Program-made: the position numbers and the translations under genes
Notes under the pieces: model-generated
The model's input: only the letters and a program-made list of their open reading frames with translations
Told to the model about the DNA's origin: nothing
Databases searched by the model: none
Shown: piece by piece, positions 1-10,183 of the stretch
Layout of the letters: each line of letters starts with the position of its first letter
Numbering within the stretch: the first letter of the stretch is position 1
IMG/VR virus record: IMGVR_UViG_3300029721_000031
Reading direction: 5' to 3' (one strand)
DNA: 10,183 nt
From: a virus
Lineage: Duplodnaviria; Heunggongvirae; Uroviricota; Caudoviricetes

Positions 1-971
1 GTGATGCGCGGCTCCGTGCCGCCAAAGCCGTCCGGCACTGACTGGTCGCAGTACTGGCCGATGACATACAGCGCCCATTTATCCACATCCGCCGCACCAA
101 GACGTTTCCCCATGCCGTAGCGCGGATGGGTCAGCATATCCCACAGACACCAGGCCATGTTGTTGCTGTATGCTGGCTTAAACGTTCCGTCCCAGATACC
201 GCTGTATTGCCGCGTCTGCGGGTTATAGTTCGACGGCACCTGCAGAATGCGCCCGCGCAGATGATAATTACGGCTCACCTGCTGGCTGCCGAACTGCTCC
301 GAATCCACCTGCACGCCGACCAGTGCCGTGTTCGGGTAGCACTGTTTCACATCGATGATTTCGGTGTATGACGACCAGAGCGTTTTGTTCTGCAGCTGGT
401 CTGTGGTGCTGTCCGGCGTCATCCTGCGCATCCGTATATTGAACGGGCGCGGCGGCAGGTTACCCACCACCACCGAGGCCAGATACTGCGAGGTGGTTTT
501 GCCCTTAATGGTGATGTCTTTTTCCGTCACCCAGCCACCATTACGCTGTATCTGAACCAGCAGACGGACTTCCGACGGATTCCTGTCACCCTTTGAGGTG
601 GTTTCCACCAGTGCCTGTACACCGAAGGTAAAGCGCAGACGGTCGATGTTTGCCGACGTAATGGTGCGGGTGATCGGCGTGTCATATTTCACTTCCGTAC
701 CCAGCACCGTCTCGGAGCCGGAGGATTCAAATCCCTCCGGCGGTGACTGCTCCTGCTCACCTGCCCGGAACACCACCGTGACGCCGGATATATTGGTATT
801 CCCCTCACTGTCCAGCACCGGCGTACTGTTCAGCAGCACGCTTTTTAATCCATCCACCGGACCTTCAATCGGCCCTTCGCTGATGGCATCAATCACACTC
901 AGCAGCTGCGTGGATTTCAGGTTGTCCTTCGCTTCGCGCGGGGTATGCCCCTTACTGCTGCCTTTACCCAT
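1..971 (-). CDS. J: Tail tip / host-specificity protein J, N-terminal ~323 aa only; the gene continues beyond the left edge of the window
   Basis: Minus-strand frame opens with ATG at 971..969 and translates MGKGSSKGHTPREAKDNLKS..., which matches my recollection of the lambda J N-terminus. It stays open to position 1. The 60-nt spacer to the I stop equals the lambda I-J spacing as I recall it. Confidence 0.9.
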   Translation of the reverse strand, partial: MGKGSSKGHTPREAKDNLKSTQLLSVIDAISEGPIEGPVDGLKSVLLNSTPVLDSEGNTNISGVTVVFRAGEQEQSPPEGFESSGSETVLGTEVKYDTPITRTITSANIDRLRFTFGVQALVETTSKGDRNPSEVRLLVQIQRNGGWVTEKDITIKGKTTSQYLASVVVGNLPPRPFNIRMRRMTPDSTTDQLQNKTLWSSYTEIIDVKQCYPNTALVGVQVDSEQFGSQQVSRNYHLRGRILQVPSNYNPQTRQYSGIWDGTFKPAYSNNMAWCLWDMLTHPRYGMGKRLGAADVDKWALYVIGQYCDQSVPDGFGGTEPRI

Positions 972-993
972 TCGTCATGCTCCATAAACGATA

Positions 994-1013
994 AAACCGC
1001 CCGGAGGCGGTTT
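994..1013 (-). terminator. Terminator-like stem-loop in the I-J intergenic spacer (8-bp stem, 4-nt loop, followed by a U-rich tract on the transcript)
   Basis: Plus strand reads AAACCGCC cgga GGCGGTTT, a perfect inverted repeat. On the minus-strand transcript the stem is followed by UUUUAUCGUUUAU before the J start codon. Confidence 0.35.
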
Positions 1014-1031
1014 CACATAAAACGTTTTTCA

Positions 1032-1673
1032 TCAGCGACCAATCACCACAACCTGACCACCATCACCTTCATCTGCTGTGCTGATCTCCTGAGATACCAC
1101 ACGTGATCCCACGCGCATTTCACCGTACAGAACGGGCAGAACATTGCCCTGGGCAACCATATTATCCAGTGAAGAAAAATAGGTGTTCTGTTTGCCGTTA
1201 TCCGTTGTCTGTGTGCGGGGGGTTTTGGGTTTAGGGGCCAGCATCTGTGCAACACCGCCAAGCGTCATACTGGCACCGAGAGAAAACAGCAGATTACTCG
1301 CCATAATTCCTACCCCCGGCATCCATATAGCAACCGCCATAACAGCCGCCCCCAGCACAGCCTGAAACACACCGCCACTTTTGGCTCCTGCCAGACGCGG
1401 CACGATATGGATCACGGCACCATTTTCCAGCGGCTCATTAAGACGGGCAGACAATTCGGTTTCACCTGCATCACGCCCGGCAATGCGTACCTGGTACCAG
1501 CCGTCGCTCAGTTTCTGACGAAATGCCGGGATCTGCATGGCCAGCGCCCGGATGGCTTCGGACCCCGTTTTCACTCGAAGGTCGATGCGGCGGCCAAATC
1601 GTTGTAAATCCCCGTAAAGGCAGATGCGTGCCATGCCCGGTGACGCCAGAGGGAGTGTGTGCGTCGCTGCCAT
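1032..1673 (-). CDS. I: Tail assembly protein I (213 aa)
   Basis: ORF translation MAATHTLPLASPGMARICLYGDLQRFGRR... and C-terminus ...EMRVGSRVVSQEISTADEGDGGQVVVIGR match my recollection of lambda gpI. Its start overlaps the 3' end of K by 103 nt in another frame, as in lambda. Confidence 0.9.
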   Translation of the reverse strand: MAATHTLPLASPGMARICLYGDLQRFGRRIDLRVKTGSEAIRALAMQIPAFRQKLSDGWYQVRIAGRDAGETELSARLNEPLENGAVIHIVPRLAGAKSGGVFQAVLGAAVMAVAIWMPGVGIMASNLLFSLGASMTLGGVAQMLAPKPKTPRTQTTDNGKQNTYFSSLDNMVAQGNVLPVLYGEMRVGSRVVSQEISTADEGDGGQVVVIGR

Positions 1674-2309
1674 TTGTCGGTGTACCTCTCTCGTTTGCTC
1701 AGTTGTTCAGGAATATGGTGCNNNNNNNNNNNNNNNNNNNNNNNNNNNNNNNNNNNNNNNNNNNNNNNNNNNNNNNNNNNNNNNNACATCGCCCGGCTGC
1801 GCCGCTGACAACGGCACCTGATACAGCCCTGTGGCCTCCAGATTATCCAGATAGAGATTCTGACCGTTACGCCACCAGTCATCCCCGCGATGAAAATCCG
1901 GCATCTCAATTCCCGCCAGATGGTAAGCGTCCCGGAACAGCGTGTAACAGTCCGTTACCCCGTGCTCAAAGCGCCGCCCGGTGAGATGCGGCACACAGCG
2001 GAATTTATGAATCGCCCCCCGGCAGACCAGCCACCACGGCAAATCACTCTGTACCTGCAGCCGCCGGTCGGCCTCACTCAGCCAGGGCAGACCACCGGGG
2101 TGGCTGTGGACCAGCGCCACAATCTCTCCCTGCATTTCTGCACTCAGCCAGTCCTCCGGCGACATCCGGAAATACTCCTCCGGCTCACCGGAGATATTCA
2201 CGCAGGGAAAATATCTTTCCTCCTCCGGCGTTCTCACCACGAAGCCGCACGACTCCGCTGGCGCACATCGCCGGGCGTGCGCCAGAATCGCTGATTCTGT
2301 CTCTGTCAT
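1571..2309 (-). CDS. K: Tail assembly protein K (MPN/JAMM metalloprotease-like N-domain plus NlpC/P60-like C-domain), interrupted by an assembly gap
   Basis: N-terminal part (2309..1786) carries a JAMM-type motif HSHPGG...SEADRR and the Cys-containing DCYTLF segment. After the N-run the K C-terminus ...HHIPEQLSKRERYTDKWQRRTHSLWRHRAW... continues in a different frame (1721..1571). The ORF-track call 1707..2309 ending APYS is therefore a gap artifact. Confidence 0.8.
1722..1785. other. Assembly gap / masked region (64 N)
   Basis: Run of 64 n characters in the sequence. The reading frame of K differs on the two sides, so the gap length is not the true length of the missing sequence. Confidence 0.99.
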
Positions 2310-2314
2310 GGGAT

Positions 2315-3013
2315 TTACTGCGAAAGTTTGTTAATGGAAAGGAAGCTGCCAAAGTTGCCGACATTATTGCGAAACTTACAGCCACTCAGGCATTTGCTGC
2401 ATTTATCCTTCGTGATATCGGACGTCGGCTGGTCATATTCATCCGCGACCGCCGGACCGCTATAACCGCACTCATCGCCGCGATAGGTCCAGGTGCAGGT
2501 GTTGGCCAGCATGATACGTCCCGGAAAAACAGCGCCATCCGTTTCAGTCGGCGTGGACAGTACAAAAGAGGCACTGACCGCGCTCAGTTCGCTGCACTGC
2601 TCGATGCGCCAGCGGCTGATCACCTCCTGCTCCGGATCGGCTTCGCTGTTTCCGTTGACGAAGTTCACCGCATCCAGAAAGCGGGCGTAAACCTTACGCC
2701 GGACCACCGTTCCGCCGACCAGACTCTGCAGATCTTCCGCCATCCCGGTGATCATGCCGTGCAGGTTAGAGACCGCCAGTGTCGGACGGGCAGCACTGCC
2801 CTTGCCGTTCATCTCAAATCCACTCCCCTGAATGGGATAGGCCTGATACTGCCGACTCTGCCAGGTGACAGACTCACCTTTTTCGTTCTGCTCATTACAG
2901 AAAAAGTAGCGATCCCCGCCTACCTCGGTCAGGTCGATTTCCCAGAGCACCACGCTGGCCGACTGCTCCGCACGAATGCATTCATTCAGCGTTTCCTGTT
3001 GTATGTCCTGCAT
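2315..3013 (-). CDS. L: Minor tail protein L (232 aa)
   Basis: Translation MQDIQQETLNECIRAEQSASVVLWEIDLTEVGG...GNFGSFLSINKLSQ has the same length as lambda gpL and closely matches my recollection of it. The start codon overlaps the M stop (TGATG). Confidence 0.9.
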   Translation of the reverse strand: MQDIQQETLNECIRAEQSASVVLWEIDLTEVGGDRYFFCNEQNEKGESVTWQSRQYQAYPIQGSGFEMNGKGSAARPTLAVSNLHGMITGMAEDLQSLVGGTVVRRKVYARFLDAVNFVNGNSEADPEQEVISRWRIEQCSELSAVSASFVLSTPTETDGAVFPGRIMLANTCTWTYRGDECGYSGPAVADEYDQPTSDITKDKCSKCLSGCKFRNNVGNFGSFLSINKLSQ

Positions 3014-3312
3014 CAGATCACCACTTCGTCAAACTGACACGAAAAATCGGTATAGGTGATATGTTCTGTCGCTGACCACGTTCGACACACCACTCTGATT
3101 TTTCTGTTAATACCCGGCGGGCGCCAAAAAAAAGATTTATAGCCTTCATGCCGGGCTAAAAATTTTTCAAATGAATCACGTTCATTCGCCTCAACTTTGA
3201 AATCACAGGTGAAAACGCGCAGAGAATGATTAAGTCCATTTGGACTTCGTTGCTCATAACCATCGCCAAATCTTACAGTTTTTATCGATGGTTTATTTTC
3301 TGTTTTCATTCC
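3013..3312 (-). CDS. M: Minor tail protein M (about 99 aa from ATG at 3312; the ORF track extends to a GTG at 3351)
   Basis: MKTENKPSIKTVRFGDGYEQRSPNGLN... resembles lambda gpM (conserved VRFGDGY, KSF-W-PP segments). The ATG at 3312 is preceded by GAGGATGGA (Shine-Dalgarno). The alternative GTG at 3351 overlaps the tape measure stop and has no obvious RBS. Confidence 0.8.
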   Translation of the reverse strand, partial: GMKTENKPSIKTVRFGDGYEQRSPNGLNHSLRVFTCDFKVEANERDSFEKFLARHEGYKSFFWRPPGINRKIRVVCRTWSATEHITYTDFSCQFDEVVI

Positions 3313-3343
3313 ATCCTCTGGTAACCAGTGAAATTCTTCCGTA

Positions 3344-6300
3344 TTAGCCACTTAACATTCCCCCATCACGTCGCATATTTAACAGATTGCCCTGCACCCG
3401 CTGATCAACCATCCCCATAAGTGCTTTTATTGCCTGAGGGCCAATCTCTCCATTCTGGCCGTCATTTTGAATAGTGATTTGGTATACAGGGGCATAGGTA
3501 ATATCTCCGCCTCCATTACCACTTTTACTATTAACAGCTCTGACACCAAGAGAACCATCGGAAGTTCGTGTTAATGGCATAATGGCTTCCGGACCAGCCT
3601 CACCAAAAACACCAGCCCCTCTTGCAAAAGCAAAAAATTGCGGGGAATCATAAATACCGTTCGAATACGTGTTCAATGACGGAGACTCATAAACACCGCC
3701 CTTTGCATTCGGAATAAATTTACTAATAGCACTCCCGATAGTTCCTAAAATCCCCCCAGAAGAACTGTTACTAATGCTGTCGAAAATCCCAGTAATTGAA
3801 GCCTTTAATGCTATTCGACTAAGATCCGAAATCACGGAAGTAGCGAAAGAACGAAAATTTGCTTTGCCTGTCGTGACAAAATCACCCAGCGCATCGGTCA
3901 TTCCATCAAACATCTGAGTCGTGGTTGATTTTATCTGCTCACTGATATCCTTAGTGTCATCCAGCCAGTTATTGAATCCCTGGGAGGCACCACTAACCCA
4001 GTCTCCTGCCTGAATATCGAGCTGCTCGTTTTTCTGTCTGACAATTTCTTTTTCTCGTTCCAGAGCATCATTCAGAGCCTGCATTTTCTCCTGAAAAACA
4101 TGATTTGACATCCCACGGGATTTATCTGCATAGTCACGTTCAAGTTGCAGACGCTGATTGTTATATTCACGTTCAATCCGCAGTAATTCCTGCTGGCGTT
4201 GCTGATTTTTATCGCCAACCCCATAACCAGCAATCTGAATATCATACCCCTGTTGACGATTATCAATCGAAGCCTGCAATGAATCACGCCATGCAGCTAT
4301 TTCGGCTGATTCCTTGATTAGCCTGTTATTTTTTTCAATCGCAACATTTTTCTCCATCAACGCGGTTATTTCTTCCCGGTGTAAGAGAAGCGATTTCTGA
4401 TCCTTGGTTAATTTCGATGACGGTCGTGACTCCAGGTCGGCAATCTGCTGACGCCACTTAACCAGTTCCTGTTCAGAGGAACTTAATTTAACGGTTAATT
4501 CAGTTTGTGAACTTAGTAACGCATTCTGTTGATTCAGATGATCAATCATTCGTTGGGCAGCATCATCCGAATAACCTTTCGCCTTTGGTTGCTTTGGATC
4601 TTTATAACGCTCATTTATTTGAGCGATAAGATTATTATATTCTTCCTTTGAATACTGACTCTTTAGTTTTTCCAGTTTTGCAAGTTCACTAGCTCTCTGC
4701 TGCTCCCGGGTCTGATATTGTTTTGAAAAGGCATCTGCTCTCTGTCTGAGTTCAATTCCTTCCTGTTGTCGCTTGTTGTAATCGTTTATTGATGAATTTA
4801 GTACGTCCTGAGCAATTTTTTCTGCTTGAAGTACGCCCAATTGCTGCTTTAATCGTGCCAGCCTTTTATTTTGAGCTCCGCCATCTCCAATGCCACCTAA
4901 CCCGAAAACTCCGGGTCGGGTATTTTTTTCTATTTCATCAATTTGACGGAGAACATCTGAGATTTTTTGATCAAGGGAGGCCTCACGGCCAATATCCAGC
5001 ATGGAATCCCATGCCCATTTTGCGGAGTCTGCGACAGCTTTCCATGCAGTCTCAAGATAACCAAGATTTTCTTTAATCTGGTTGGTGCGCTGGATCATTG
5101 AGGATGAGTATGCTTCTGTCGCAATGCGGGCGGCCTCCTGCTGGTTCCCTTCATCCTGTAGCGCCTTAATCTGGTTATAAGTCGCAATTGTCAGAAAATG
5201 GTACTGATCATTAAGTTTTGATATGGCACTGACAGGATCCTTTGCAATTTCATTGAAGTCATTAACCAGTTGTTCGGTTGATATTCCTGTTACTTCGCTC
5301 GTTTTTACTATCGCTGTCGTCACTTGCTCCAGCGAACTGCTCGCTACCTTTCCCGAACGCACAAGCTGGTTTAATACTGCCGCCGCAGCGCCAGTTGTCG
5401 AATCAGCCGCATTCCCGGCACGTTGAACTATATCGGCCAATTGCCCGCTGGTTGTCCCCAACTGATTTCCGGTAAGAATAAGAGACTTATTAAATTCGTC
5501 CTGCTCCTGAGAGCCTTTATAGTAAGCCAGCCCTAAGACGCCAACGGCTGCTGCGGCCAGGGTAAAAGGATTAATTAATCCCAGCACATAAGAACCAACA
5601 CCTTTGATCGCCGGGCCAATCCCACCGAACATATCTTTTAGCTGGCCGCCCTGCTGCATTAACACCATAAAAGGCGACTGACCAGTGGACAACCCAACAA
5701 CAATATCCGTCATTTGTGCAGGCAACATGCGCATAGCAAAAGCCGTTTGTTTTGCCGACATTCCGGTTTTGCTTAATTGAGATTGAGTAACCTCAAGCTC
5801 ACTCCGCATAGCACGAAGTTTTCCAGAAAGTTCCTCATACATTTCAGGAGAGAGCATCCCCTTAGCTTTTGCTTCATTGAGCTGTTTCTGTTGTTCTACC
5901 AGACGATTAAAAGCAGTTCCGACAGGGTCAAGTTGAGCAATCAGACGTTGCAAAGCAGCAACCTGTTCATCATGCGCTTTTGCTGCTTCTCGCTCTGCCT
6001 GAGCCTCTCCGGTAAGCTCTCGCCGTGTTTCCTGTATTTTTCGGCTATAATTCTCAAACTGAGAACCATTTATTTTCCCGGATGCAAACGCAGCATTAAG
6101 TTCATCCTGCTGTTGTTCAAGATTTCTTAGCGCCGCAGCCAGAGGGTCGATCTTGTCCAGCATTCTTTGAAAGGCCTGAGTCTGCGCTTCCTGCTGGGCG
6201 GCAGCAAGTTTTCCGGCCTTCTCGGCTTCTCTCTGCGCTTGCGCAACCCCGCTCAATTCCTCTGTGGTTTCATTAAGTTTACGGACAAGAAATTCATATT

Positions 6301-6577
6301 CTTCTTTATCAATAAGCCCTTTATCGAAAAATTTCTTTAATTCAGAATAGCGTCGACCGACAGTATCAATTGCGGCACCAACTGGATCAATAGCTGCTTT
6401 TAATTTTGCGAGCGCGTTCTTCTCATCTTCTGTTGCCTTAGTCACTTTCCCTGCGCTATTTGCAGCAGTTTCCCCGGCCTGCGTCATTTTGACTAATGAG
6501 GAGGTCAGATTGTCAGCATTATTTTTTGCTCCAGTGCTATCAATAATTATTGCGAGACGCGAGGTTTGCTCTGCCAT
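3344..6577 (-). CDS. H: Tail tape measure protein (1077 aa), lambda H-like core with an N-terminal repeat extension
   Basis: Long coiled-coil-rich ORF. Segments [59 protein letters not shown], and the C-terminal [38 protein letters not shown] resemble lambda gpH as I recall it. It sits between G-T and M. Start ATG at 6577 with GGAG 9 nt upstream. Confidence 0.92.
5777..6391 (-). repeat. Three tandem in-frame repeats (~73-80 aa each) in the tape measure N-terminus
   Basis: Protein repeats begin IDPVGAAI (aa 63), IDPLAAAL (aa 143) and LDPVGTAF (aa 216). Each is followed by similar helical segments, e.g. [16 protein letters not shown] vs [16 protein letters not shown]. The corresponding DNA motifs (actggatcaatagctgc, agggtcgatcttgtcc, agggtcaagttgagc) are visible on the plus strand. 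Confidence 0.6.
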
Positions 6578-6600
6578 TTATTAAAACTCCAGACAACAAA

Positions 6601-6620
6601 AAGCCCACCGAAGTGGGTTT
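6601..6620 (-). terminator. Terminator-like hairpin (5-bp GC stem, UUCG tetraloop, U5 tract) 24 nt upstream of the tape measure start codon
   Basis: Minus-strand RNA reads AAACCCAC UUCG GUGGG CUUUUUGUUGU. It lies within a 163-nt non-coding spacer (6578..6740) between the T stop and the TMP start. Confidence 0.4.
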
Positions 6621-6740
6621 CAGGCGACATAATAGTAGATATAGCGATTACGAGGCCACGCAATGCTTTTCTCCAGGAGCATCATCGATTTAATTAAAGA
6701 CACCATCACATCTCTGTAACAGAGTGTACGTAATTAACAA

Positions 6741-7061
6741 CTACACACACTGCTCCTGAAAATACTGGTCATCCAGTGCAAAGATCACTGCTTCAAACTC
6801 ATCGCGCTCAATCAATACCGGATGAGTGGCTAAATATTCATTTATCTCTGTCAGAGATAAAGGCAAAGGCACCCCGGTCATTCCAGCATAACGTCGGGCA
6901 CGGGATATTACCGAATAGGCGTACAACAATTCCTTAAGCACCGGGTCTATTTCTGGTTCCGGTATCGGTGGCAACCTGAGTTTTTCTCGCTTCCATCTTG
7001 CCTTTTCCCCCCTTTCTCCCCCGAACTCCGATAACCACCGCTGGGCGGCTATGGCTTTTTT
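6741..7061 (-). CDS. T: T extension of the G-T fusion chaperone, reached by programmed -1 frameshift from G (no ATG of its own)
   Basis: The -1 frame relative to G is open from 7085 to the TAG at 6743..6741 and has no ATG start (the ORF track begins it at a TTG, 6974). A -1 slip at A_AAA_AAG would give ...DTIKK-AIAAQRWLSEFGGERGEKARWKREKLRLPPIPEPEIDPV...QEQCV, a G-T product of about 255 aa. Confidence 0.7.
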   Translation of the reverse strand, partial: KKAIAAQRWLSEFGGERGEKARWKREKLRLPPIPEPEIDPVLKELLYAYSVISRARRYAGMTGVPLPLSLTEINEYLATHPVLIERDEFEAVIFALDDQYFQEQCV

Positions 7062-7510
7062 ATCGTATCCTGCTTCTGCTGCTCTTTACCCTGGGCGATG
7101 CTGGCTGCTTCTGCAAGGATCTGCCAGTACAACTCTGGATTCTGCTTAAGCAGCGCGATCCCTCGTTCTGGCGTATATTCCAGTGCAACCTCAGCACCAT
7201 TAACCAGTTCACCAACCCCTTTCCAGTCTTTCAGCAGATAACGAGCAGCATTATCAATGAGTAAATCATCAACAGAATCTACCTCGGAAACCTTTGAAAT
7301 ATCAAACTCCTTCGTTCCGACGTGCAAACTGGCATCCATTTTCTCAATGTGACGACGGATTAATGCATTACGGGAGCGATACTGATCGTTATCGCTGCTT
7401 GCCACCAACAGTTTTAACCCGTCTATAGGTTTTAAGTCCTTCATTGGCGTAAACCAGCGTTCTCCACCGATGATAATTTTCTGATTAAGAATAAACATCC
7501 ATAACCTCAT
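7049..7510 (-). CDS. G: Tail assembly chaperone G (153 aa from ATG at 7510; alternative start ATG at 7498 gives MFILNQ...)
   Basis: Small acidic ORF immediately downstream of the major tail gene and upstream of the tape measure, i.e. the conserved G position. It ends ...QDTIKKP with a slippery heptamer spanning its last codons. Confidence 0.75.
   Translation of the reverse strand: MRLWMFILNQKIIIGGERWFTPMKDLKPIDGLKLLVASSDNDQYRSRNALIRRHIEKMDASLHVGTKEFDISKVSEVDSVDDLLIDNAARYLLKDWKGVGELVNGAEVALEYTPERGIALLKQNPELYWQILAEAASIAQGKEQQKQDTIKKP
7055..7061 (-). promoter_or_regulatory. Putative -1 ribosomal frameshift slippery heptamer A_AAA_AAG
   Basis: Minus-strand sequence gat acg ata aaa aag cca tag: the heptamer A AAA AAG occupies the last two Lys codons of G, one codon before the G stop. 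The same heptamer type is used by E. coli dnaX. Confidence 0.65.
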
Positions 7511-7519
7511 TCAATGCGT

Positions 7520-7546
7520 CCCCCTGTAGTGCAGTACCACAGGGGG
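7520..7546 (-). promoter_or_regulatory. Strong hairpin in the V-G intergenic region whose 3' arm overlaps the predicted G Shine-Dalgarno
   Basis: Inverted repeat CCCCCTGT(7520..7527) / ACAGGGGG(7539..7546). On the transcript the stem can extend to ~11 bp with one G-U pair and a 5-nt loop. The 3' arm ACAGGGGG ends 9 nt before ATG 7510. No U-tract follows, so it is not a canonical terminator. Confidence 0.45.
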
Positions 7547-7558
7547 AATAACGGAAAA

Positions 7559-8521
7559 TCAACTAATCGCATCAGCACTGGCTTTTGCGATCACGGCAGT
7601 CGGGGAGCATTTTTTTCTGGTTATCGTAGGTGCTTCATCTGCTGCGGTAATGCTCAATTGAACCTGGATAATGTCAGTATTACCCCCATCAGGCCATTCA
7701 CCTGACACCTGAACCTTCGGGAAACTGAAAGTGTATGCCCCCTCTCCATTCGAAAGCGTGAAGCTGAACGGAACTGTTTCTCCAGTCAGTGTTTTACTCC
7801 AGATTTCCCACGCGGCTTTAGACCATGAAAGCGTCACCGTACCGGACGGTGTAAAAGTAGTCGGAATATTTGCTCCTGCATAAGGCGAGCCAGTCCCGAT
7901 ACAACGCTGTGTCTGGAGTTTGTTATCGAACTGAATATCAAAACTGTCGATACAAAAACCGTTACCTCCGGCAACACCATTCAGGCTTACTGCTGAAACC
8001 GCCTTAAACGAATAGCGTAACTTTCCTGCACTATCCACAGGTTCGCCTTTGATAAAATTCGTATCATCGGCCTTTGATTCCCAGCCCAGCCCGGCAAAGG
8101 TTACGGTCGCTGTAATATCGCCGTCGTTAGGGATCTGCATTTTCCATGAGCCAACCTGCGCTCCTCTGACGACAGAGGCAATTCCGACATCGGACGCATA
8201 GGTCGCCAGAGAAAATGTTATTCGCTCATTCCCCATTGTCAGAGAATCGCCTGACCATTCCGCGCCGAAACAGGATGCAAGAAAATCATCATGTTGACCC
8301 CAGCGAAATTTGGTACCAACATCACCGCCGACATCCACAGTGCCAGGCGTCGCCCCCTGAGCCATCCGGGAGCCACCAATCTCATTATTTTCGCCTTTAT
8401 TCTGGGTGGGTTTTACTCCCCAGCTTGTGCGTTTTAATAAACTCCAGTCACCACTTGCTGGCGTAGTGCCTGCAACTGTCTCCCGGATAAATGCCGAGAT
8501 AACCTTTGCACCTGAACTCAC
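7559..8521 (-). CDS. V: Major tail (tube) protein, V-like (320 aa)
   Basis: Position immediately upstream of G/G-T. Gly/Thr/Ser-rich beta-type composition typical of tail tube proteins. GTG start at 8521 preceded by TAGGAGG with a 5-nt spacer. The family assignment is by synteny and composition, not a verified motif. Confidence 0.75.
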   Translation of the reverse strand: MSSGAKVISAFIRETVAGTTPASGDWSLLKRTSWGVKPTQNKGENNEIGGSRMAQGATPGTVDVGGDVGTKFRWGQHDDFLASCFGAEWSGDSLTMGNERITFSLATYASDVGIASVVRGAQVGSWKMQIPNDGDITATVTFAGLGWESKADDTNFIKGEPVDSAGKLRYSFKAVSAVSLNGVAGGNGFCIDSFDIQFDNKLQTQRCIGTGSPYAGANIPTTFTPSGTVTLSWSKAAWEIWSKTLTGETVPFSFTLSNGEGAYTFSFPKVQVSGEWPDGGNTDIIQVQLSITAADEAPTITRKKCSPTAVIAKASADAIS

Positions 8522-8547
8522 AGGAGCCTCCTATGTCATTAATTGCG

Positions 8548-8940
8548 CTAGAGCGCGCGATATGGAATTTGAAGATTAAGCTGGAACCAGCCATTCTTTT
8601 CGCCGACGGCTATTGAGGAAACAGCCTGGTAACTGAGACGATCGTCATCCTGAAACTCAAACAGTTCCCGCAATTTATCGGCTGTCTCAGTAATGAGTTT
8701 TGAACCAGAACCTGCGGGGACAAATAACTGAATAATGATTATCCCCGTGCGATAAACAACCGGCCCCGCGCCAATTTCATTAACTCCAGCTTGCCCGGGA
8801 ATATTACTTAACCGCGCCCAGATTAACTTACCGGAAGGATCGAACGTTGGCCCGTTCGGATACAATACGTCTTTTCCATCAATAATCGTCTGTGCCGTCA
8901 TTCTGGAAATAACCGTATTTCTGATTTCAGTAAACTTCAT
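8548..8940 (-). CDS. Tail terminator / tail completion protein (gpU-like role), 130 aa
   Basis: Size and position (directly upstream of the major tail gene) match the lambda U / siphovirus tail terminator slot. Start overlaps the upstream stop by 4 nt (ATGA). No specific motif verified. Confidence 0.55.
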   Translation of the reverse strand: MKFTEIRNTVISRMTAQTIIDGKDVLYPNGPTFDPSGKLIWARLSNIPGQAGVNEIGAGPVVYRTGIIIIQLFVPAGSGSKLITETADKLRELFEFQDDDRLSYQAVSSIAVGEKNGWFQLNLQIPYRAL

Positions 8941-9317
8941 TTGTAAGCCTGTAAAACACCATGAAAAGCGTTGGCATACACGCCAGTTGGCGCTTGTTGT
9001 GAATGACCGTTTTCAAGAGCCTCTGCATAAGGAAGGTTATTCTGGATATAAATAACCCCGTAATTTGCAGCTTTCGAAATAACCCCGATCCCACGCTGAA
9101 CAGCAATCGTACCGTTCGGATCCACGTTATCAGATATACCAAAATCGGGATGCTGTAACGACACCAGGTTGTTATTTCTGAAACGTCCGGTATCAACCGG
9201 AGCAGCAATATCAATAGCAGTAAGAATCTGAATAGCGATGTAGCGAATCTTCAGCCCTACATCTTCCTCAATCATCCCGGCAAATATTGACGGTTCTATA
9301 TCCCATGCCTTTGCCAT
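8937..9317 (-). CDS. HK97 gp10-family-like tail component / head-tail joining protein, 126 aa
   Basis: Contains PVDTGRFRNNN, resembling the DTGxLRxS motif I recall for the HK97 gp10-like family. Adjacent to and coupled with the neighbouring small structural genes. Confidence 0.55.
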   Translation of the reverse strand: MAKAWDIEPSIFAGMIEEDVGLKIRYIAIQILTAIDIAAPVDTGRFRNNNLVSLQHPDFGISDNVDPNGTIAVQRGIGVISKAANYGVIYIQNNLPYAEALENGHSQQAPTGVYANAFHGVLQAYK

Positions 9318-9701
9318 TTACGCTCTCCTTAACTGGATAGAGTAAACTGATGCGGAAGGATCTACACTTGCTGTAATTACCTCGTATCGTTGTAACTGCC
9401 TTGATACAGGATCATAAATCTCAATAATATGGTCGACAGCTGGTTTATCCGTAACCTCGCATACCAGAGCGGTTAATTTAAGGTCACCATGCAAAATATT
9501 AATCCCATCAATTCTGCCCAGCTTATAACGTGTCAACACGCCTCGCCCGGTATAGATTGCGGTGGATTCGCCGCCAGTTTCCGTCACAGGATCCCAGTGC
9601 CGGTGCGTAACGTAAGAACCAGAAAAATCACTCACGGCGTCCGCTAAATCCTCATCAAAAGCAGCGGCAACCTCTGACTGAATCTCTTCACGAAGCCCCA
9701 T
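9318..9701 (-). CDS. Head-tail adaptor / head closure-like protein, 127 aa
   Basis: Small ORF in the head-tail connector gene block. Its ATG shares one nucleotide with the upstream stop (TAATG). Function assigned by synteny only. Confidence 0.5.
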   Translation of the reverse strand: MGLREEIQSEVAAAFDEDLADAVSDFSGSYVTHRHWDPVTETGGESTAIYTGRGVLTRYKLGRIDGINILHGDLKLTALVCEVTDKPAVDHIIEIYDPVSRQLQRYEVITASVDPSASVYSIQLRRA

Positions 9702-10087
9702 TATCCCCCCCTCACAACCCTGACTTGTGAGCGACTAAGTCCGTACTGTTTCAGCAGTGCTATCGCAAGCTGTAAATCGGGTTCAAGCAATGCAGTGCTG
9801 TTTGCTGGCAACTCAGAAAATGATTTCGATACACTGACCCCGTCAGCCGACACGGCTTTACTGATAACAACGCCAGAATCATTTTTCTGCTGAAACAACT
9901 TACCGAATGAGGCAATTCTGGCTGCATATGCTCCCGCAAGTTTTACCTCTTCCGGAATACGGGATGGGTTAATTTTCAGGTTGAAGCCATTAAGCCAGGC
10001 ATTAGCCATTAAAACAGCTTTATTTTTAGCGTTCTCACTCGTCCAGGCGTTCCCAAACGCATTATCAACGTCATCACAGGTCACGTA
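9701..10087 (-). pseudogene. Head-tail connector-stage structural gene whose 5' end abuts the IS629 terminus; either 5'-truncated or cut off from its RBS and promoter
   Basis: Open frame runs right up to the IS boundary (Y-V-T-C-D-D-V-D-N-A-F-G-N-A-W...). The first possible start in phage DNA is a GTG at 10084..10082, only 3 nt from the IS end. The ORF-track N-terminus MTDFGGKTSIFSHPVYLFLRKFSLQDSRGGS is read-through into IS DNA. Confidence 0.5.
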
Positions 10088-10183
10088 TGAACCGCCCCGG
10101 GAATCCTGGAGACTAAACTTCCTGAGAAAGAGGTAAACAGGATGACTAAAAATACTCGTTTTTCCCCCGAAGTCCGTCAACGG
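10088..10183 (+). mobile_element. Left end of an IS629-like IS3-family insertion sequence (terminal inverted repeat starting TGAACCGCCCCGGG...), continuing beyond the window
   Basis: Sequence TGAACCGCCCCGGGAATCCTGGAGACTAAACTTCCTGAGAAAGAGGTAAACAGGATGACTAAAAATACTCG matches my recollection of the IS629 left terminus. It shows the IS3-family TG... end and an orfA start with RBS GAGG. Confidence 0.85.
10142..10183 (+). CDS. IS629-like transposase OrfA, first 14 codons (MTKNTRFSPEVRQR...), partial
   Basis: ATG at 10142 with GAGG 9 nt upstream. The N-terminal peptide MTKNTRFSPEVRQR matches the IS629/IS3-family OrfA N-terminus as I recall it. Confidence 0.85.
   Translation, partial: MTKNTRFSPEVRQR

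Follow-up and report, generated by a model that had tools for sequence, protein, structure and literature searches.

The tail genes in the window, by which we mean the whole stretch of 10,183 nucleotides that was analysed, raise the question whether they derive from one phage or from two and, if from two, where and how the parts were joined. The window covers the tail region of an intact lambdoid prophage of the Rac family from E. coli/Shigella, and all of its genes lie on the minus strand. Its features are as follows.

1–971, minus: 5' part of gene J (central tail fibre, host specificity), first 323 codons; 99% amino acid identity to lambda J residues 1–323; GC 56.9%
1032–1673, minus: gene I (tail tip assembly/insertion); 79% amino acid identity to lambda I; Pfam Lambda_tail_I, E = 1e-23; GC 56.2%
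1571–2314, minus: gene K (C40/JAB peptidase, tail assembly); coordinates as annotated by PGAP in L001, a near-identical locus
2315–3013, minus: gene L (tail tip hub), lambda-type from codon ~13 on; 93% amino acid identity to lambda L; Pfam Phage_tail_L, E = 1.5e-97; GC 55.9%, GC at third codon positions (GC3) 0.67
2975–2998, no strand: crossover interval of the mosaic joint, L codons 6–13, from informative sites; GC change point at 2974
2975–3037, no strand: patch conserved between Rac-type and lambda-type phages, comprising the last 8 M codons, the overlapping TGATG stop/start and the first ~12 L codons
3013–3351, minus: gene M (distal tail protein ring), Rac-type; 42% amino acid identity to lambda M; Pfam Phage_min_tail; GC 41.0%, GC3 0.35
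3344–6577, minus: tape measure gene, 1077 amino acids, Rac-type; 28% amino acid identity to lambda H; Pfam TMP_2, TMP_4 and Tape_meas_lam_C; GC 45.0%
6741–7510, minus: YdaY and a downstream 77-amino-acid ORF, Rac-type, flanked by the tube and tape measure genes; the downstream ORF has a weak Phage_TAC_18 match
7559–8521, minus: tail tube, 320 amino acids, Rac-type; Pfam Phage_tube_2, E = 1.9e-32; GC 49.8%
8548–10096, minus: tail terminator-like gene and three further head-tail genes, Rac-type; Phage_tail_terminator_5 for 8548–8940; from the PGAP annotation of L001; GC 44–47%

An earlier note on this DNA had proposed a sharp step in GC content near 3013. Windowed GC and codon usage display this step, including a drop in GC3. 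GC content was 57.1% in 1–3012 and 45.8% in 3013–10183, and a single-change-point likelihood scan placed the change at 2974 (2-log-likelihood support interval 2955–3031). The corresponding LLR of 54.7 was far beyond chance, the maximum across 200 shuffles of 50-nt blocks being 12.7. Mean GC of 60-mers was 0.572 on the left (n = 47) and 0.458 on the right (n = 118; Mann-Whitney p = 8e-15). The step resides mainly in third codon positions, with the GC3 of L and M given above and a value of 0.39 for the tape measure gene. A recount of the 60-mers at 2401, 3121, 4081, and 4561 yielded 34, 22, 24, and 22 of 60 as compared to 35, 22, 24, and 23 previously counted by hand. The 37–43% GC then stated for M and most of the tape measure gene holds for M and is too low for the tape measure gene, as the 60-nt samples happened to be low. 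A GC dip at 1601–1900 was considered as a second mosaic patch and rejected as an artefact of 64 masked N at 1722–1785. Lambda has no step at its own L/M boundary: M has a GC content of 55.8% and L of 55.7%, and GC is uniform across the boundary at 0.54–0.60. In the full prophage, L-K-I-J form a high-GC island (0.56–0.59), a minority block of ~5.5 kb that separates low-GC virion genes from fibre genes that are likewise lower in GC; the genes from M to the small terminase subunit range from 0.41 to 0.51.

The discontinuity in composition (GC change point 2974, GC3 from 0.67 to 0.35) coincides with a break in similarity. To the left, L-K-I-J match a lambda-type tip cassette by Phage_tail_L, Lambda_tail_I, the J N-terminus, high identity, and lambda gene order. 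The DNA of J, I, K, and L is 98.4–99% identical to that of the lambdoid phage PhiR49_1, with 98.9% nucleotide identity for L. The reading frame of K is broken in the window solely by the masked N; K of L001 shares 84% of its amino acids with lambda K and 100% with PhiR49_1 K. The close likeness of J, I, K, and L to lambda that had been noted before was therefore confirmed, at 99% for the J N-terminus, 79% for I, 84% for K, and 93% for L. From M rightwards a different picture emerged, and identity to lambda collapses from 93% in L to 42% in M. M still matches lambda gpM in PDB entry 8IYK (E = 2e-25). Only M and the tape measure protein are distantly homologous to lambda proteins, and no BLASTP match with E ≤ 0.01 was obtained between the chaperones, tube, and terminator and the corresponding lambda proteins (V, U, G/T). 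The module is hence not a lambda-type shaft module, in agreement with the different ancestry that the earlier note had assigned to the block of M, tape measure, chaperones, and tube. YdaY and the downstream 77-amino-acid ORF probably represent a tail assembly chaperone pair of the G/GT type, as suggested by a slippery A AAA AAG at 7061–7055 in a phase fitting a -1 shift. The virion module from M rightwards is family-specific with a GC content of 41–50%, and P22-coat-like head genes follow in relatives. Among deposited phages, the low-GC block matched by DNA only the same chimera (10 records), and the next-best M by protein was ~50% identical. Among species-representative genomes, M occurred at ≥97% identity only in Shigella flexneri and Escherichia ruysiae, with none of the others above 44%.

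Membership in the Rac family is documented by several matches. In K-12, Rac ydaY and ynaA match 5643–7400 at 98.6%, ynaA corresponding to the 5' third of the tape measure gene. The region trkG-ynaK at L001 is 99.9% identical to K-12 Rac; trkG and ynaK lie in the same prophage, upstream in relatives. On its tail-fibre side the L001 prophage adjoins sitABCD, and L-J and lom form one uninterrupted stretch with side-tail-fibre genes of lambda-like type. The matching vB_EcoS 'phage' records are prophages predicted by PHASTER rather than isolated virions, and they therefore do not demonstrate a working chimeric tail. RalR has been reported in three matching predicted prophages. The block of M and the tape measure gene was found in 712–721 of 5426 complete E. 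coli genomes (~13%), with the same joint in 717, and the joint was present in every complete E. coli genome having Rac-type M of this family. E. coli genomes contain a median of 4 places matching the window, in accordance with several lambdoid prophages per genome. Uniform identity to a single reference across 1–6577 had been named as evidence against a junction. Literally, such identity exists, at 99.6% throughout to E. coli GN02461. As GN02461 carries the same prophage family, the match shows that the chimera is widespread, not that it is absent, and the chimeric reading stands. The joint is not private to the window; it is fixed in ~717 complete E. coli genomes and is re-used repeatedly.

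Breakpoints were located by an informative-site partition together with mismatch counts per bin. The partition used two outgroups with Rac-type M, both obtained solely from a large protein collection. At 102 sites the window shares the base of both Rac-type outgroups and differs from lambda-type phages, and every one of them is located at or above 2999. The reverse pattern occurs at 81 sites, of which 68 are at positions up to 2974 and 13 are scattered in poorly aligned M. This partition delimits the crossover to 2975–2998, inside L and 15–38 nt from the L start at 3013, and so bears out the prediction of a switch within a few tens of nucleotides of the M stop/L start. The crossover interval is part of the conserved patch of ~61 nt, in which 50 of 61 positions (82%) match lambda, compared to ~55% for M overall. 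By percent identity, the joint is thus bordered by a flank of intermediate identity as defined for lambdoid mosaics (PMC3945230). At the patch, DNA that can be aligned with that of lambdoid phages comes to an end, and BLAST matches of lambdoid phages and of more than 4000 E. coli genomes stop at 2965–3035. No Chi site was found in the whole window, and neither direct nor inverted repeats were found in 2800–3200.

Taken together, the window is very probably a chimera in which a lambda-type L-K-I-J cassette of ~57% GC has been joined, inside L, to a Rac-type module by recurrent exchange that tolerates sequence divergence. The joint is an ordinary recombination joint and a textbook case of lambdoid mosaicism, with relaxed homologous recombination as the most likely route. 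Lambdoid mosaics arise mainly from homology-driven, divergence-tolerant exchange with flanks of intermediate identity, and RecT of Rac is active in such exchange (PMC3945230). The event may accordingly be pictured as homologous recombination of a Rac-type phage with a lambda-type prophage resident in the same cell, with recombinases of the Red or RecET type as candidates. The Rac-type parent would have possessed L-J genes of its own, ~72–78% identical, and its tip cassette would have been replaced; as homology does not extend beyond the conserved patch, the right-hand crossover would have had to fall within it. The structure of the tail may have favoured this position. In lambda, the ring of gpM is anchored to the tube, and its contact with the gpL/gpJ ring consists of electrostatic stacking (PMC10721106). 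By analogy, the M hexamer would have to fit its own tube and tape measure and would merely stack electrostatically on the L/J ring, which would make the M|L boundary a natural place for swapping tips with assembly unbroken.

The direction of transfer, tip cassette into Rac-type backbone, appears to follow from the composition and the two outgroups. As recombination is symmetric, a lambda-type phage could conversely have kept L-J and gained the module from M to the head genes from a Rac-type donor of lower GC content; the data show just two ancestries meeting at 2975–2998, and the contiguity of L-J and lom with the lambda-like side-tail-fibre genes would suit this direction. We consider it unlikely, however. 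It is the high-GC block that forms the minority between low-GC virion genes and lower-GC fibre genes, and the rest of the prophage has the Rac hallmarks trkG, ynaK, and ydaY. Furthermore, the L genes of relatives with Rac-type M are more diverged and lower in GC, as expected of the older partners of M: outgroup L is 78% identical in amino acids to lambda-type L, and in one outgroup L has only 44% GC and a GC3 of 0.38.

Fourteen family members were compared in order to follow the history of the joint. Mean pairwise divergence was 4.9% on the J-L side and 1.3% on the M-tape-measure side, and the left side was the more diverged one in 84 of 91 pairs. The members have 10 distinct alleles of L and 7 of M. 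Together with the split of informative sites at 2975–2998, these values indicate independent histories of the two sides. Even where M and the tape measure gene are nearly identical, members can differ by up to 10% in L-J. In the six members whose L differs by at least 5%, dense differences end between 2927 and 3005 (at 2927, 2990, 3000, and 3005), with Fisher p values of 1e-20 to 1e-31. Since dense differences end there and the left side is more diverged, we conclude that L-J alleles have been swapped repeatedly up to the boundary; exchange would thus be recurrent in the family.

This pattern has to be weighed against a single ancient joint that arose by illegitimate recombination at a gene boundary, was selected, and has been inherited vertically, with no role of the patch (Hendrix/Juhala model). 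Such a history would agree with the location at a gene boundary and with the occurrence of the joint in every genome that has this M. In both outgroups with Rac-type M, a lambda-family L likewise comes immediately after M, and the stop/start overlap is the same, so an old joint does exist at this position, and the deepest, original joint may stem from illegitimate recombination. As the sole explanation, however, a single ancient joint is largely refuted, and we regard it as quite improbable. It does not account for L alleles 5–10% apart next to near-identical M and tape measure genes, with differences ending at slightly varying positions no more than ~85 nt from the boundary. Moreover, L of the window is 98.9% identical to that of a present-day lambdoid phage and only 72–78% identical to outgroup L, and the crossover lies inside L within the 82%-identical patch and not exactly at the gene boundary.

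With regard to the patch itself, its conservation could be purely functional, reflecting the C-terminus of M, the N-terminus of L, and translational coupling. That the ~61 nt are kept beyond coding constraint as a dedicated Susskind-Botstein 'linker', with M|L as a selected hotspot across phages of the Enterobacteriaceae, is a doubtful proposition to which we give little credence. If it were true, the host-range cassette L-K-I-J(-lom-stf) would be hot-swappable between otherwise unrelated siphovirus shaft modules. Finally, the notion that no recombination occurred and that the GC difference reflects amino acid composition, codon adaptation, expression level, or an assembly or masking artefact is refuted and has almost no probability left: Ala/Gln/Lys/Glu coiled coil abounds in the tape measure protein and may bias its composition, and the masked Ns do mimic a GC dip at 1601–1900, but the step is largest at third codon positions, lambda M and H are as GC-rich as lambda L, identity to lambda drops at the same point, the joint recurs in 717 independently assembled complete genomes, and the N run is 1200 nt away from it.

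That lambdoid phages are modular mosaics and that prophages exchange DNA by way of homology is already established, and no concept is changed by the joint, of which we found no description for Rac-like prophages in open-access literature text. It is a clean and well-resolved case in which temperate phages shuffle their host-range (tail tip) genes without regard to the other virion genes. Lambdoid prophages residing in the same cell very probably serve as a continuing source of new tip cassettes for this family, which occurs in ~13% of complete E. coli genomes. In prophage typing, L-J genes are uninformative on the prophage family. The remnants in K-12 Rac also become readable: ydaY can be read as a putative G-type chaperone gene, and ynaA corresponds to the 5' third of the tape measure gene.

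Three known systems lend themselves to comparison. K-12 Rac has ydaY and the tape measure 5' third in common with the window. It lacks the head genes and has lost the DNA between a point inside the tape measure gene and lom, and for that reason it has no M/L joint. Full-size Rac-like prophages are known (Liu et al. 2015, PMC4632033; Jobling 2016, as cited in PMC5917428). The lambda tail tip complex (gpM, gpL, gpK, gpI, gpJ, gpH; PDB 8IYK; PMC10721106) has the same order H-M-L-K-I-J and near-identical L, K, I, and J sequences; M, L, I, and the C-terminal domain of the tape measure protein also fall into the same Pfam families. In contrast to lambda, M is only 42% and the tape measure protein 28% identical, the latter being 224 residues longer than that of lambda, and the tube, terminator, and chaperones belong to unrelated families. 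With the lambdoid mosaic joints described by De Paepe et al. 2014 (PMC3945230), the locus shares an abrupt change of relatedness and composition that falls on or close to a gene boundary, a segment of >90% identity common with other temperate phages next to a short flank of 82% (55% background), and E. coli hosts with several lambdoid prophages. There is no difference in kind to these joints; specific to the locus described here are the exchange of the whole L-K-I-J unit, a right limit pinned to a patch of ~61 nt, and the reuse of this limit within one family.

All genes of the window lie on the minus strand, as follows (amino acid identity to the lambda counterpart in brackets):

971 to below 1, minus strand, J, first 323 codons, extending past the window edge (N-terminus, 99%)
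1032-1673, minus strand, I (79%)
about 1571-2314, minus strand, K (84%)
2315-3013, minus strand, L (93%)
3013-3351, minus strand, M (42%)
3344-6577, minus strand, tape measure, 1077 aa (28%, to lambda H)
6741-6974, minus strand, small ORF, 77 aa
7049-7510, minus strand, YdaY
7559-8521, minus strand, tail tube, 320 aa
8548-8940, minus strand, terminator-like gene
up to about 10096, minus strand, three more small genes

BLASTP gave no match between the chaperone ORFs, tube, terminator and remaining genes and their lambda counterparts. By Pfam, L, I, M and the tape measure belong to lambda-type families and the tube to Phage_tube_2; M matched the solved lambda gpM structure 8IYK with E = 2e-25. 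Within K, 64 nt at 1722-1785 are masked as N where relatives have 69 nt, and this mask alone makes the reading frame seem broken in the window. The last 96 nt (10088-10183) are the end of an IS629 element (IS3 family), 100% identical to IS629 on Shigella flexneri virulence plasmids; it is inserted in the head-tail gene ending at 9701, 9 nt inside its 5' terminus. In its place, most relatives carry a small ORF followed by a P22-coat-like capsid gene.

From hand counts of GC, the earlier note had proposed a sharp compositional step near the L start at 3013, joining lambda-like L, K, I and J to an M-rightwards block of different ancestry. In a 200-nt sliding profile, GC was ~51-63% up to about 3000 and ~36-52% beyond; excluding the masked bases, it was 57.1% for 1-3012 vs 45.8% for 3013-10183, and 60-mers from the two sides differed in GC (p = 8e-15). 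A one-change-point likelihood scan placed the step at 2974 (support interval 2955-3031), with a log-likelihood ratio of 54.7, where 200 block shuffles reached no more than 12.7. GC3 fell from 0.67 in L to 0.35 in M and 0.39 in the tape measure gene, placing the step chiefly at the third codon position. The four hand counts were each correct to within one base, but the samples had fallen on low spots, as GC is 41.0% for M and 45.0% for the tape measure gene. A naive profile also dips to low GC at 1601-1900; this was rejected as a product of the N run. Over the full length of the prophage, L, K, I and J stand out as a ~5.5-kb island (GC 0.56-0.59, GC3 0.57-0.67); GC is 0.41-0.51 from M through the small terminase subunit and 0.42-0.52 in the fibre genes past lom. 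Lambda is uniform from E to J (0.54-0.60), without a step at its M/L boundary.

The proposed difference in ancestry agreed with the drop in lambda identity between L and M; both the observation and its interpretation hold. Many lambdoid phages (PhiR49_1, mEp332, mEp460, cdtI, Ayreon) matched the window at 93-98% DNA identity from position 1 to 2965-3035, ending there, and with a probe spanning the joint lambda-type matches stopped at 3016-3035 in thousands of complete E. coli genomes. A search of a large protein collection yielded two intermediate relatives of M, on a metagenome contig (L037; ERZ27254723 k141_25771) and in Citrobacter sedlakii (L036), with 83% and 75% aa identity to the window and about 40% to lambda. 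An L gene directly follows M in both; these L proteins are about 77-80% identical to each other, to the window L and to lambda L, with 44% GC and GC3 0.38 in L037 and 54% GC in L036. Judged from these sequences, the Rac-type M (that of the low-GC module) thus appears to have "older", lower-GC L partners. The window L is 98.9% identical in nucleotides to that of a present-day lambdoid phage, and it is probable that the tip cassette (L, K, I, J) was replaced within a Rac-type backbone. In L037 (2877-3913), where M adjoins the low-GC L and I and J have ~51% GC, the tip cassette may be unreplaced or long-ameliorated. L036 (1225-5047) carries ~4 kb of accessory genes between the chaperone and tape measure genes, with Pfam matches to KilA-N, Arc/FitA-like, P22_AR_N and ANT/pRha antirepressor-like families; the window counterpart is a 163-nt spacer (6578-6740).

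Informative sites were taken from a five-way M+L alignment of the window, the two outgroups and two lambda-type phages. The window agreed with both outgroups and not with the lambda-type at 102 sites, all at or beyond 2999; the 68 sites of the opposite type all lay at or below 2974, with another 13 scattered through the poorly alignable M body. The crossover therefore falls within 2975-2998 (L codons 6-13), coinciding with the GC change point and within the few tens of nucleotides of the L start that had been predicted. The two ancestries join here in the last patch of common sequence, 61 nt comprising the last 8 codons of M and the TGATG stop/start overlap and running on into L to 2977. This patch is 82% identical to lambda vs about 55% for the whole of M, and lambda-type and Rac-type DNA can be aligned only from about 3037.

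The closest matches to the window are E. coli chromosomal prophages, and the deposited "phage" records matching the chimera are software-predicted prophages. Beyond the window, the E. coli GN02461 element encodes Lom, side-fibre genes, a P22-coat-like capsid gene, portal and terminase, then ynaK, trkG and lysis genes. The cryptic Rac of E. coli K-12 MG1655 (5630-7389 of L035) is 98.6% identical to window 5643-7400, a stretch that takes in ydaY and ynaA, the latter corresponding to the tape measure gene's 5' third; K-12 Rac also matches the trkG-ynaK segment of GN02461 at 99.9%. This identifies the window as the tail region of an intact Rac-family prophage; full-size Rac-like prophages were described previously (PMC4632033; Jobling 2016, as cited in PMC5917428). 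K-12 Rac keeps only ydaY and ynaA of the tail module; one deletion runs from ynaA to lom and another removes the head genes between ynaK and ydaY, and the region holding the joint is gone. YdaY ends in DTIKKP; a slippery A AAA AAG at 7055-7061 (minus strand) is phased so that a -1 shift would lead into the frame of the downstream 77-aa ORF, itself a weak match to Phage_TAC_18. PGAP labels the pair as unrelated, "protein YdaY" and "hypothetical protein", yet together (6741-7510) they look like a conserved G/GT tail-assembly-chaperone frameshift; if so, K-12 ydaY would be a remnant chaperone gene.

Of 5426 complete E. coli genomes, 721 carry the M/tape-measure block and in 717 the cross-joint probe was covered; essentially every copy of Rac-type M adjoins a lambda-type L. 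A joint shared by 717 genomes can be neither an artefact of assembly nor a private event. In E. coli strain 64.1 (L045, 3004-3341) M is annotated as frameshifted, and some prophage copies are therefore decaying.

We compared the window with 13 other family members, from E. coli (11 genomes), S. flexneri (one), E. ruysiae (one) and a deposited record labelled "Salmonella phage". Between pairs, divergence averaged 4.9% for J-L vs 1.3% for M-tape measure, the left exceeding the right in 84 of 91 pairs. Six members carry L alleles 5-10% off the window, four of them with M within 0.8%, and in all six the dense differences stop at 2927, 2990, 3000 or 3005 (Fisher p 1e-20 to 1e-31 in the four members tested). 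One M protein, WP_000024051.1, occurs with at least six different L proteins. Exchange has recurred at this boundary, and in this family the turnover of L-J alleles is much faster than that of M-tape measure. Mismatches between the window and GN02461 number 33 in 1-1200, compared with 3 in all of 1201-10087; the position near 1200, in gene I, is a second, very recent allele-exchange breakpoint inside the tip cassette. Within the Rac-type clade, M (75-83% aa) and L (~77% aa) diverge at similar rates. Lambda-type L is as near to the outgroup Ls (78-80%) as these are to each other, yet lambda M shares only 40%; the L-J lineage must therefore have passed between the two M types, on one or more occasions, well ahead of the recent swaps.

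Such exchanges would be explained by divergence-tolerant homologous recombination between co-resident lambdoid prophages; in E. coli genomes, a median of 4 places match the window. With homology ending at about 3037, the right-hand crossover would be restricted to the patch. Neither a Chi site nor a repeat was found at the joint. In lambda, the tip is held on the tube by the beta-sandwich of the gpM hexamer, whose E-loops stack electrostatically on a ring of gpL and gpJ domains (PMC10721106). By this structure, M would need to fit its own tube and its own tape measure, and the contact of M with L and J, a ring-on-ring stack, is plausibly tolerant of a swap.

No description of this particular joint was found in the open-access literature; the phenomenon and mechanism are established, and the joint is known in kind. 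Database analysis added the exact position of the breakpoint, the conserved patch, the Rac-family identity, the prevalence, the probable direction and the evidence of repeated exchange. As a case of lambdoid mosaicism the joint is well resolved, and the prophage family that carries it is known. De Paepe et al. (2014) found that mosaicism of temperate phages with defective prophages is mainly homology-driven and tolerant of high divergence, often shows flanks of intermediate identity, and is promoted by Rad52-like recombinases, RecT of Rac among them (PMC3945230). The joint described here agrees with those experimental and genomic results.
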